Source: Leucoraja erinacea (Eukaryota). Taken from it: a stretch of DNA of 64,000 bases. Shown piece by piece: positions 11,655-42,781 of the stretch. Each line of letters starts with the position of its first letter. Positions within the stretch are counted from its first letter, which is position 1. The notes under the pieces were generated by a model. It did not search any database, was not told the DNA's origin, and worked only from the letters and a program-made list of their open reading frames with translations. Made by a program: the position numbers and the translations under genes. The stretch spans positions 5,208,001 through 5,272,000 of the forward strand of contig NC_073410.1 of assembly GCF_028641065.1 (NCBI RefSeq), given 5' to 3'.

Positions 11655-13289
11655 CAGTGCCCTCCATAATGTTTGGGACAAAAACCCATCATTTATTTAT
11701 TTGCCTCCATATTCCACAATTTGAGATTTGAAATAGAAAAAAAATCACATGTGGTTAAAGTGCACATTGTCAGATTTTATTAAAGGCCATTTTTATACAT
11801 TTTGGTTTCACCATGTAGAAATTACAGCTGTGTTTATACATTGTCCCCCCATTTCAGGGCATCATAATGTTTGGGACACATGGTTTCACAGGCATTTGTA
11901 ATTGCTCAGATGTGTTTAATTGCCTCCTTAATGCAGGTATAAGAGAGCTCTCGTCACCTAGTCTTTCCTCCAGTCTTTCCATCACATTTGGAAACATTTA
12001 TTGCTGTTTATCAACGTGAGACCACAGTTGTGCCAATGAAAGTCAAAGAAGCCATTTTGAGACTGAGAAACAAGAATAAAACTGTTAGAGACATCAGCCA
12101 AATCTTAGGCTTACCAAAATCAACTGTTTGGAACATCATTAAGAAGAAAGAGAGCACTGGTGAGCTTACTGATCGCAAAGGGACTGTCAGGCCAAGGAAA
12201 ACCTCCGCAGCTGATGACAGAAGAATTCTCTCTATAATAAAGAAAAATCCCCACACACATGTCCGACAGATCAGAAACACTCTTTCTGGAGTCAGGTGTG
12301 GATTTGTCAATGATCTCTGTCCGCAGAAGACGTCATGAACAGAAATACAGAGGCTACACTGCAAGATGCAAACCACTGGTTAGCCAAAAATATAGGATGA
12401 CTGGGTTACAGTTTGCCAAGACGTACTTAAAAAAGCAACCACAGTTCTAGAAAAAGGTCTTGTGGACAGATGAGACGAAGATTAACTTATATCAGAGTGA
12501 TGACAAGAGCAAAGTATGGAGGAGAGAAGGAACTGCCCAAGATCCAAAGTATACCACCTCATCTGTGAAACATGGTGGTGGGGTGTTATGGCCTGTGCAT
12601 GTTTGGCTGTTGAAGGTACTGGCTTACTTATCTTCATTGATGGTACAACTGCTGATGGTAGTAGCGTAAATGAATTCTGAAGTGTATGGACACATCCTAT
12701 CTTCTCGTTCAAACAAATGCCTCAAAACTCATTGGCCGGTGGTTCATTCTACAGCAAGACAGTGATCCCAATCAAAGGAGTTTTTTCAAAGCTAAAAAAT
12801 GGTCAATTCTTGAGTGTCCAAGTCAATCACCCAATCTGAACCCAATTGAGCATGCCTTATATATGCTGAAGAGAAAACTGACGGGGACTAGCCTCCAAAA
12901 CAAGCATAAGCTAAAGATGGCTGCAATACAGACCTGGCAGAGCATCACCAGAGAAGACACCCAACAACTGGTGATGTCCATGAATCACAGACTTCAAGCA
13001 GTCATTGCATGTAAAGGATATGCAACAAAATACTAAACATGACTACTTTCATTTACATGACATTGCTGTGTTCCAAACATTATGGTGCCCTGAAATGGGG
13101 GGGGGGGGACTATGTATAAACACTGCTGTAATTTCTACATGATGAAACCCAAATGTATAAAAATGGCCTTTATTAAAATCTGACAATATGCACATGATTT
13201 TTTTTTTCTATTACAAATCTCAAATTGTGGAGTACAGAGGCAAATAAATAAATGATGGATCTTTGTCCCAAACATTATAGAGGGCACTG
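11655..13289 (+). mobile_element. Full-length Tc1-like DNA transposon (~1.63 kb) with long IR/DR-type TIRs
   Basis: TA|CAGTGCCCTCCATAATGTTTGGGACAAA ... TTTGTCCCAAACATTATAGAGGGCACTG|TA; TIRs about 11655-11880 and 13067-13289, each with an inner CATAATGTTTGG repeat. Confidence 0.95.
12036..13036 (+). pseudogene. Tc1 DDE transposase, disrupted
   Basis: HTH region, RPRK, WTDETK, QQDSDP and SPNLNPIEH motifs spread over several frames; TAG at 12448-12450 and a deletion after the second Asp. Confidence 0.92.
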
Positions 13290-40278: not shown

Positions 40279-40773
40279 TAATGCAACTGTACTGTAAGCC
40301 CTGCACTCAAAGATACAAAGACTGAGAGACACTTACAGAACTACTGAACTCCTACAACAGTGGAAGTCTAAAGGACAAAGAGCAAACTCTGCTGTTTCTG
40401 CCACTCCCCTGCCTTTCAAAGGTAGAAACAGTGAACAATTTTGTTTGAATATACAAACAGATGCTGGTTTACACAATAGGACACAAAATACTGGAGTAAC
40501 TCAAAGGGTCAGGCAGCATCTCTAGAGAACATGGATAGGACACGTTTCATGTCCTGACCTGAAACATCACCTATCCATGTTCTCTAGAGATGCTGCCTAG
40601 CCCTTTGAGTTTCTTCAGCACTTTGTGTCCCCAGTCAAAATCTTTGGCCACCAGATGGTGCTAGTGGTTTAAAGGTGAACTGAAGACTGCTTGCCATATT
40701 GAGATCCACAGGTTACAATTCCATTTAGTGGGGTCTGACGATGAGTCTCATCACTTCCTACACCCAGCTTCCT

Positions 40774-40912
40774 TCTTCTTCCTGCGTATGGCGTGCACAG
40801 CCTAAAGTTGTCAGACAACTTGTTCTATTTGATCTTATTTCACTGTGCACGCCGGGTTGATTGCATTTGTCGAAACAGGGCGGACCACATGAAGGTTGCA
40901 ATCTCGCACCCC
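40774..40912 (-). mobile_element. ~140-nt non-autonomous retroposon with an HDV-like ribozyme head, 11-bp hairpin and (GAA)n tail
   Basis: TSD ACCCAGCTTCCT at 40762-40773 and 40913-40924; see finding. Confidence 0.75.
40859..40912 (-). ncRNA. Minimal HDV/CPEB3-like self-cleaving ribozyme fold (this copy slightly decayed)
   Basis: GGGGUGC-GA-GAUUGCA-ACC-UUCAUGU-GGU-CCGCCCU-GU-UUCGA-CAAA-UGCAAUC maps onto P1, P2, P3, L3, P1', reduced P4, J4/2 and P2'. Confidence 0.7.
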
Positions 40913-42781
40913 ACCCAGCTTCCTCGACAACACAGACTTTCCCAATGGTTCCAGTCTCTCAGGGATGAATCTTTGGCCTGGGAATGTCAACTCGAAGAAA
41001 AATAATCCAAGCGGAATGTTTTTGTTTCGATCACACCTTTCATAAGTTCAGGGTCTGCAATATCTATTGCCATGGTGCAGGAAGTGTCGCAACAAATCTG
41101 TGCATATCAAGATCTCGTGAACAATATCGTTGCTGGATGATGGGGTGAGAACATTGATTCATCTCTGCCTTCTTTGAGGCACGTGCACACGCACACAAGC
41201 ACACACACAAAATCTCAGACATATATTCTCTCAGACACAGACACACAATCTTCCACACAGTCTCGGTCAGACACACTCCACGACACAAACACACAAACAG
41301 TTGTAGACACGACCAAATTGAGACACAAACATAATATCTCAGATACCAATACACAGACGCTCAGAGATGTACACAATTATACATTCACCCAGTTGTAATC
41401 AGGCAATTGAACCATCCCACCACAACCAGAGAGCAGTCCTGAACTACTATCTACCTCATTGGTGACCCTCGGACTATCCTTGATCGGACTTTACTGGCTT
41501 TACCTTGCACTAAACGTTATTCGCTTATCATGTATATATACACTGTAAATGGCTCGATTGTAATCATGTATTGCCTTTCTGCTGACTGAAAAGCACGCAA
41601 CAAAAGCTTTTCACTGTACCTCGGTACACGTGACAATAAACTAAACGAAAAAAACCTCAGCCTCACATCTAATAGGGAATGCATCTTTTAGCTGAGAGTT
41701 GCATTTGTACCTGTCAATCAGCCAGTTCGGGTGACTGTCACTAATTGCCGTGGCCCAGATACAGATGGGCTTTGATTTGAGCAGGTGTGTCACTCCTCAT
41801 TATCCACCAGGATTCCACCTCCAGCTGCAACTTCATAAACAATTAATTGAAGGGCCGAAACGCAGAAGGAGGGCAAATGATCACTCTGCTGCTAATGTGA
41901 TGTTCATCTGGATTTTTGCCCTGTGTTGGAGAAAGTATAGAACCTCCCAGCCATGAAATAAAGGCTGCACCTTAAAGGTAACCTCTTTCTCCAGAGGACC
42001 AATATATTGTCGGCTGCAATCCCAACCCAGACATCCTCTGTCTTTAAAATACTCTCAAAGTGATTCAGTTCAGTTACTCGTAGCTTCACCTCTGAAATAA
42101 ACAGAGTGGTTTTCTTTTTCTTTAACTGTGTAAAAAACACTCACATGACCTGCATTTGATGATGCATTTGACATATATTTTCACAGCATTTCTAAATATC
42201 CTGCAGCACTTCTGTGCGCCTGCAGGTGGCGATGTCTAACCTAAAGCGATGATTGGGATGTTGTTGGCACATCCTCTCTCCAGCCTTGGCACCATCCTGT
42301 GAGAATTTCATGGCTCTTCCAGGATTTGAAGATTGATGCCTCAGGATTAATCCATAGGAAAAATAATGTTGAATTAAAATTTGTTTTGATTTCTTTTGGA
42401 TACTCTCATCCATTAGTGTTTGGATGAGATGTCTCCCCGACCCTCTGGATCAGATGTCTATCTGACCCTCTGGAGTAACTCAGTGGGTCAGTCAGCATGT
42501 CTTGAGAACATGGATGTGACATTCCAGGTTAGTATTTTAGTGGATCTGAAGAAGGGTCCCGGGGAGAAACATCACTTATCCATGTTCCCCAAAGATGCTG
42601 CCTCACCCGGTGAATTGCCTCAGTGTTTTTCATCTTTAATCAAAATAATTGGAGAGGCGAAGATGGTTCATCCATTCACACAGTTTTTTCCATCACATTG
42701 GAGTCTCTTCTTAATGCTTCTTCAAATGTGTTGGGATTCATGAACTGAGTAGATGGCAATCAGTAGGAGATTTAATCATGT

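Follow-up and report, generated by a model that had tools for sequence, protein, structure and literature searches.

The question raised by this locus is what kind of mobile element left a 139-base insert whose first 54 bases can be parsed as a self-cleaving ribozyme, and how such an element would spread. The insert lies on the minus strand (40912-40774) of the window, the whole 64,000-nucleotide stretch of DNA that was analysed. Its letters agreed base for base with those given in the first-pass annotation, which had described a 139-nt retroposon between 12-bp target-site duplications. The duplications were exact: the upstream copy (40913-40924) is identical to the downstream copy (40762-40773), and a 13th base overlaps G1, the first base of the insert. 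Elsewhere in the window, 20 of the 25 long frames were compared, the five over masked stretches being left out, and none was recognisable as a host gene. The frame at 11943-12338 has helix-turn-helix matches, including a transposase HTH below cut-off, and is likely a Tc1/mariner remnant. A long inverted repeat at 40508-40600 is common in the genome, with many matches in other loci and with miRNA-model matches below cut-off.

The head of the insert (40859-40912, minus strand) was parsed, with the support of family counts, as a fold of HDV/CPEB3 type without P4. P1 pairs element bases 1-7 with 30-36 and contains one C-C mismatch, J1/2 is 2 nt, P2 pairs 10-16 with 48-54 over 7 bp, and P3 pairs 17-19 with 27-29; the loop L3 (UUCAUGU), GU, a 5-nt linker and CAAA make up the rest. 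The minimal HDV/CPEB3-like parse with a single P1 mismatch thus stood on re-reading. It predicts cleavage 5′ of G1 (40912), where G1 pairs with U, and a catalytic C at 40869, the first base of J4/2. P1, P2, P3 and P1.1 form a nested double pseudoknot in the right order, in which every pair is possible in intact copies, with one mismatch in the window copy. A structure descriptor tolerating one defect matched the window only at 40912 (minus strand) and had no match in any of 10 shuffles, and with two defects it gave 0-2 matches per shuffle; having been shaped on these same families, it serves as a chance control and not as a blind test. The Infernal-type check proposed earlier turned out negative: Rfam gave no ribozyme match on the window, the element included, at either threshold, and its CPEB3 model (RF00622, cut-off 35 bits) matched neither the element nor copy L210 of the parent LINE described below. 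Plain folding of the whole insert was unexceptional (z −1.63; 9 of 200 shuffles were equally good).

The insert belongs to a large family. An exact 20-base anchor of the element occurred 4,648 times in the genome (control, 0), and a genome search with the element gave 2,991 candidates, of which the 40 scored were all 94-100% identical over the full length. The 4,648 exact anchors, at a non-CpG divergence of about 4%, imply a family of about 10,000 copies; three element copies met in 478 kb of loci that partly overlap and had been retrieved for other ends give the same order of copy number. Sequence words were also common to the element and sequencing runs from eight organisms. Counts were made on 81 distinct near-full copies, 52 chosen for likeness and 29 unbiased. 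Target duplications were found in 71 of these, 68 of them 10-15 bp long; shuffled partners gave 0.25. Copies begin at a constant 5′ end, at position 1-2 in 30/30 copies picked by their 3′ half and at position 1-3 in 25/30 picked by a middle anchor. The annotated retroposon family, with its start at G1 as the insertion boundary, was therefore borne out, with at least 4,648 copies and 10-15 bp duplications. The base preceding G1 was T in 44 copies, C in 16, A in 15 and G in 6, a target preference that would also avoid G ahead of the cleavage site. Six loci (L006, L008, L016, L021, L025 and L311) hold one insertion inside another repeat that multiplied with that repeat, with identical flanks on several contigs.

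Comparison of the copies separated damage from family features in the head. G7 is present in 76/81 copies and C24 in 65/81, so that P1 and the loop UUCACGU are restored in the family, as had been proposed for checking, and the P1 mismatch (40906) and the L3 change (40889) are private damage of the window copy. Both UUCAUGU and CAAA had been attributed to CpG decay. For the loop this holds as damage, but CAAA is not private: the parent has U at the second position in 12/12 parsed copies, and the subfamilies have G, U, A or C. Among the 29 unbiased copies this base is G in 10, U in 8, A in 5 and C in 2, and the A travels with a second marker in 31/41 copies. The catalytic C before it is retained in 25 of the 29 and lost in 4, the losses being scattered. 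Only 7 of the 29 are intact in every pair, the catalytic C and the loop. In intact copies P1 plus P3 is the best fold of the 54 nt (−12.4 kcal/mol), and the full-length non-pseudoknot ensemble prefers P2 over P1 even there. With its P1 mismatch and UUCAUGU, the window copy forms a wrong hairpin in the folding model (−13.4 kcal/mol versus −8.1 for P1 plus P3) and is probably misfolded and inactive as a ribozyme. We regard it as likely that intact copies would cleave. In young classes an ATG overlapping P2 opens a 13-codon frame (element 48-86, window 40865-40827), and the parent LINE's own ORF appears to begin downstream of it.

The source of the element was found among the LINEs of the genome. 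A search with the 3′ half of the element returned further short copies only and no parent, exclusion patterns aimed at a parent mostly yielded interrupted or deleted element copies, and the first 122 loci contained no Vingi- or RTE-type motif. Two contigs seemed to hold a longer 3′ end, but both derive from a single truncated copy by segmental duplication. A protein motif used as query found 131 LINE copies (control, 0), including several families whose 3′ termini consist of an A(C/T)ACG-type motif and (GAA)n. Families A-E could be dismissed as parent, since their ends do not match the element. The endonuclease of one LINE family as query, with 150 of 367 candidates scored, led to L210 and L209. 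The first 68 bases of the element match L210 (689-756) at 88%, element 105-139 matches the end of L209 at 89%, and the two loci have about 2.7 kb in common at 79-86%. In L286 and L289 both element ends occur in one insertion, each between target duplications. The LINE sharing both ends, for which a search had been suggested, therefore exists in this genome.

This parent is about 3.1 kb long and encodes an endonuclease and a reverse transcriptase (RT). L286 matched Pfam RVT_1 (E 5e-28) and Exo_endo_phos (E 1.5e-6), and endonuclease/RT matches were obtained in L286, L273 and L282. The parent copies are broken, and the single ORF was read from the sister copy L273 (860 aa open). In sister family A, the 346 aa following the RT matched no Pfam family, RNase H included. 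Vingi has been described as a compact single ORF with APE endonuclease and RT and no RNase H (PMC13708176), and the Vingi-2_Gav 5′ end printed in the supplement of PMC5786205 is near-identical by eye to the heads of families A, B and E. A putative placement of the parent in Vingi is based on this architecture and on the one published 5′ end. The 14 PDB matches included no solved Vingi structure.

Element bases 1-81 (40832-40912, minus strand) are the 5′ end of the parent, and bases 95-139 (40774-40818, minus strand), as judged from 30 parent 3′ ends, are its stop-codon region, the 3′ UTR of about 35 nt and the tail. The 3′ part closes with the terminal A(C/T)ACG-type motif and (GAA)n tail (40774-40789, minus strand), a form common to the Vingi-type LINEs of this genome. 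Between the two parts lies a 13-nt junction (element 82-94; 40819-40831, minus strand) that partly repeats the preceding A-rich bases, is absent as such from the five parent copies compared, and helps to form a 7-bp inner hairpin (40805-40821). It is thus close to certain that the element is a two-ended non-autonomous derivative of a Vingi-type LINE. The idea of a SINE-like parasite with a head of its own has to be given up in favour of an internal-deletion derivative whose head is the 5′ end of its parent. Duplications in 71/81 copies, at least 4,648 copies and a variable tail show that it was amplified independently of the parent. Non-CpG divergence is 0.9-11% for parent 3′ ends (29 copies), 0-8% for the derivative and 0-4% for its youngest class (31 selected copies); because these ranges overlap, the parent could have mobilised all subfamilies. 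Parent copies are mostly 5′-truncated, with 662 3′-end candidates versus 47 5′-end candidates. A second short derivative of the same parent, with a different junction, was seen at G000:C4:59740408 (L071) and G000:C16:11476558, and L219 and L238 carry longer forward deletions.

The predicted ribozyme head is not confined to this parent. Ten LINE families with a recovered 5′ end, the parent included, have the same order of elements with different stems. When the descriptor was applied to 21 representative heads, 13 were parsed (two with the wrong P2 partner) and eight damaged copies were missed. P1.1 covaries between families, being C-G in most, U-A in family I and two pairs in H and J; helix covariation, which had been put forward as a check, is thus present across the LINE families and not within the element family. 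In a scan of 14 loci with the Rfam CPEB3 model, three sister heads exceeded the 35-bit cut-off, L282:3937-4021, L285:3902-3986 and L279:3846-3933 (all minus strand; 61, 56 and 44 bits), four heads scored 26-31 bits, and seven had no match, parent and element among them. The parent family alone, among those with recovered heads, has P4 replaced by 5 nt. Changes from parent to subfamilies fell at tolerated places, namely J1/2, the variable J4/2 base and a P1 pair that is U-A in the parent and U-G in most derivatives. These comparisons of sequence indicate that the predicted ribozyme head is a clade feature inherited from the LINE and not the element's own. As further observations, family H heads (L273-L277) start with A, not G; the P1.1 pair is swapped to U-A in the family I loci L199 and L206; and L197, L201, L203, L207 and L211 represent a LINE family with an HDV-type head and no recognisable tail, partly tandem or nested.

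A second feature common to the LINE families is complementarity between their two ends. The element contains an 11-bp inverted repeat (60-70/113-123; pair probability about 1.0) enclosing 42 nt. Its 5′ arm (40843-40853, minus strand) begins 6 nt past P2, and its 3′ arm (40790-40800, minus strand) stops directly before the terminal motif. The first-pass annotation had read it as a perfect 11-bp 3′ hairpin; the repeat is perfect, but its arms derive from the two untranslated ends of the parent, one in the 5′ UTR and the other in the 3′ UTR, where they are about 3 kb apart. Family A has the same end-to-end layout with unrelated arm sequence, which prompted a test in which the 25 bases after P2 and the 25 bases before the terminal motif were paired within their own family and in permuted assignments. 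Families C, D and K, each lacking one end, were left out. For nine families the own pairs had a mean of −12.5 versus −6.2 kcal/mol, and the own-family assignment was the best of 362,880; at other window sizes it ranked 2-11 of 362,880. It was also the best of 5,040 with 19 copies of seven families, and again the best of 5,040 after removal of A and F, the two families that had suggested the idea.

The geometry is similarly regular. In the standard geometry of the nine-family set the 5′ arm begins at +5 to +8. In six of the nine families (A, B, E, H, J and L) the 3′ arm runs right up to the motif, with 0 nt between them, and in the parent the gap is 1-2 nt. Two of the families, B and L, were obtained after the geometry prediction had been written down; both agree, B with a perfect 10-bp match. 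In family I the 3′ arm ends 6-9 nt ahead of the motif. Family G showed no pairing in the predicted window (−8.7) and pairs only if its 5′ arm is shifted by about 26 nt. The palindrome GTGCAC occurs in each of the two arms of family F. The families tested are related, and their arms have no sequence in common. The derivative itself gained one helix pair: A61 is found in 10/13 old-class copies, and G61 in 58/64 copies of the younger classes. In the alligator SINE2-1_AMi sequence given in the PMC5786205 supplement, a 5-bp hairpin can be made out by eye at the corresponding two positions. A functional end-to-end helix is probable from these comparisons.

Insertion sites of the parent bear on the same point. 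Twin-primed 5′-inverted L1 insertions have an inverted piece adjacent to the 3′ piece within one target duplication. Among 30 parent copies picked by their 3′ end, six have an inverted piece that begins at parent position 1-39, ends at 76-420 and meets, in head-to-head orientation, a 3′ piece from about 2-2.6 kb further on, and the duplications round the whole insertion are clear in four and degenerate in two. They resemble twin-primed L1 in having an inverted 5′ piece and a 3′ piece within one target duplication; unlike in L1, the inverted piece reaches the 5′ terminus and about 2-2.6 kb is missing before the 3′ piece. Four of the inverted pieces stop at 76-81, just past the 5′ arm, which is also where the element's own 5′ part ends. 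Such pieces would be expected if the ends were held together: with the RNA's own 5′ end kept at the site, the second nick would prime on it. One further inversion in the 30 copies lies at the 3′ end, and family A has an inverted head in 1/10 loci. Inverted 5′-terminal pieces with about 2 kb or more missing were also seen, within one target duplication, at L249, L251, L255, L264, L269, L270 and L133, and likewise at L215, L229, L230, L237 and L242.

We are fairly confident of the following explanation: the element is an internal-deletion derivative of a Vingi-type LINE that spreads by means of a self-cutting head and paired ends serving as the signal for RT. An element copy would be transcribed inside host RNA, for which read-through was seen in one sequencing run, and the 54-nt P4-less HDV-type fold would cut 5′ of G1 and so set the 5′ end. 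The 10-11 bases following the ribozyme could then pair with the bases before the terminal motif and (GAA)n tail; the complementarity is observed, and the pairing in the cell presumed. Endonuclease and RT of the parent, acting in trans, would prime at the tail and insert the copy between 10-15 bp duplications, a step in which the products are observed and the enzymes assigned by parentage. Extended to the clade, this would mean that Vingi-type LINE RNAs are closed loops, in which an HDV-type head sets the 5′ end and the ends pair across 3 kb as a recognition helix for RT; we lean only slightly towards this wider rule. If true, it would account for the two-ended mini-elements of the clade and for capture of the far 5′ end in inverted form, and the 139-nt family would be the minimal cis-acting unit. 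Within the same rule, and with the same slight preference, the 54-nt head would be a natural P4-less ribozyme in an animal retrotransposon, and the sister heads would suggest a Vingi origin of the mammalian CPEB3 ribozyme.

The strongest competing explanation, which we regard as unlikely, accepts the same origin and holds that the head no longer cuts or that cutting is dispensable. The head would be retained for another role, as an internal promoter, a signal for translation or a site of protein binding, and the precise 5′ end would reflect where transcription starts or the fact that a short RNA is copied in full. The first 77 nt of L1Tc are both promoter and ribozyme (PMC8256844), and some well-folded trypanosome SIDER ribozymes are inactive (PMC4035085). 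P4 is missing from the head, but in phages HDV-like ribozymes without P4 are active (10.1101/2023.06.13.544163). The catalytic C could be sequestered in a 2-bp UUCG mini-hairpin, but forming it is energetically costly. The poly(A) RNA run X24 of a related organism, about 6% of which was read, gave 1,270 reads on the element stretch; 285 continue past G1 into other flanks, which is read-through, and no pile-up of read starts at G1 was listed in this portion. Its strand counts (about 60-69% first mate on plus) are close to those of a neighbouring repeat (57%) and uninformative on strand. The run lends cleavage no support and fits copies that are mostly damaged and read through. Against a non-cutting head, no expanded subfamily lacks the catalytic C, though in the largest class this base lies in a CpG, and the base next to it changed three times whereas the scattered losses of C itself number only 4/29.

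Less likely again is that the end complementarity, though real, is a by-product or has a stabilising role, shielding uncapped RNA or promoting internal deletion, and is not a recognition signal for RT. The excess of 5′-truncated parent copies (662 versus 47 candidates), which means that full-length copying is not ensured, the departure of family G from the standard geometry and the GTGCAC palindrome in both arms of family F would all suit it. A fixed geometry maintained with unrelated sequences, the 3′ arm ending 0 nt before the motif in 6/9 families, and the capture of the far 5′ end at insertion sites speak against it. It is hardly credible that the element is a classical Pol III SINE with a tRNA or 5S head, or that the fold arose by chance: size and copy number are SINE-like, but the parent alignment makes the head the LINE's own 5′ end and rules out a tRNA-, 5S- or 7SL-derived one, the window has no tRNA gene, Rfam gave no match, and the fold was absent from the shuffles under the one-defect descriptor.

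The derivation from a Vingi-type LINE with a cutting head and paired ends would have several consequences. It offers a testable answer to a question raised in PMC5786205, namely why few LINE clades make two-ended elements. Vingi-1 is under development as a means of inserting genes from RNA alone, using templates with both UTRs (PMC13708176); for this use the end-to-end helix and the ribozyme head would have to be designed in, and insertions with an inverted 5′ piece would be a side product to expect. A 54-nt P4-less fold amplified about 10,000-fold, with J4/2 variants, is a test set for minimal ribozymes outside phages, and sister LINE heads near-identical to the CPEB3 model bear on the origin of the mammalian CPEB3 ribozyme. 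Among the paper titles and passages surveyed, none described a ribozyme in Vingi, a pairing of LINE ends or a derivation of the CPEB3 ribozyme from a retrotransposon. The element family may already be named in Repbase or Dfam.

A two-ended non-autonomous LINE is a known kind of element, as R2 SIDEs and NARTc illustrate. Such derivatives are known for four clades, RTE, Ingi, Vingi and R2, and ribozymes are listed for six clades, Vingi not among them (PMC5786205). Like the bipartite Vingi-1_EE deletion derivatives, RIME (Ingi), NARTc (L1Tc) and Bov-A (Kojima 2018, PMC5786205), the element consists of only the 5′ and 3′ ends of an autonomous LINE, with no ORF. Short derivatives headed by a ribozyme are established for R2 (PMC3414825, PMC6765202) and L1Tc (PMC4035085), and the element is like the R2 SIDEs (PMC3414825) and NARTc/SIDER with L1TcRz (PMC4035085) in combining an HDV-like 5′ head with a LINE 3′ end. 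Those elements are mobilised in trans and ribozyme activity has been shown for them, whereas the ribozyme of the present element is predicted from its fold. It also differs from R2 SIDEs and NARTc in its roughly 10,000 dispersed copies in a large animal genome and its predicted 54-nt P4-less head; the trypanosome ribozyme constructs were 78-126 nt (PMC4035085). In its short loop in place of P4, short J1/2 and catalytic C as first base of J4/2, the head resembles the minimal HDV-like ribozymes without P4 and the theta ribozymes, which come from gut phages and metagenomes and for which a screen that included human, mouse and protist genomes is reported to have given matches only in phages and a few bacteria (10.1101/2023.06.13.544163). 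Unlike these, it heads a retrotransposon and has L3 and GU of CPEB3 type. With the mammalian CPEB3 ribozyme (RF00622) it has in common the family L3 UUCACGU, GU after P1 and CNAA before P2; unlike that ribozyme, which is a single intronic copy, the element has no model score, no P4 and other stems.
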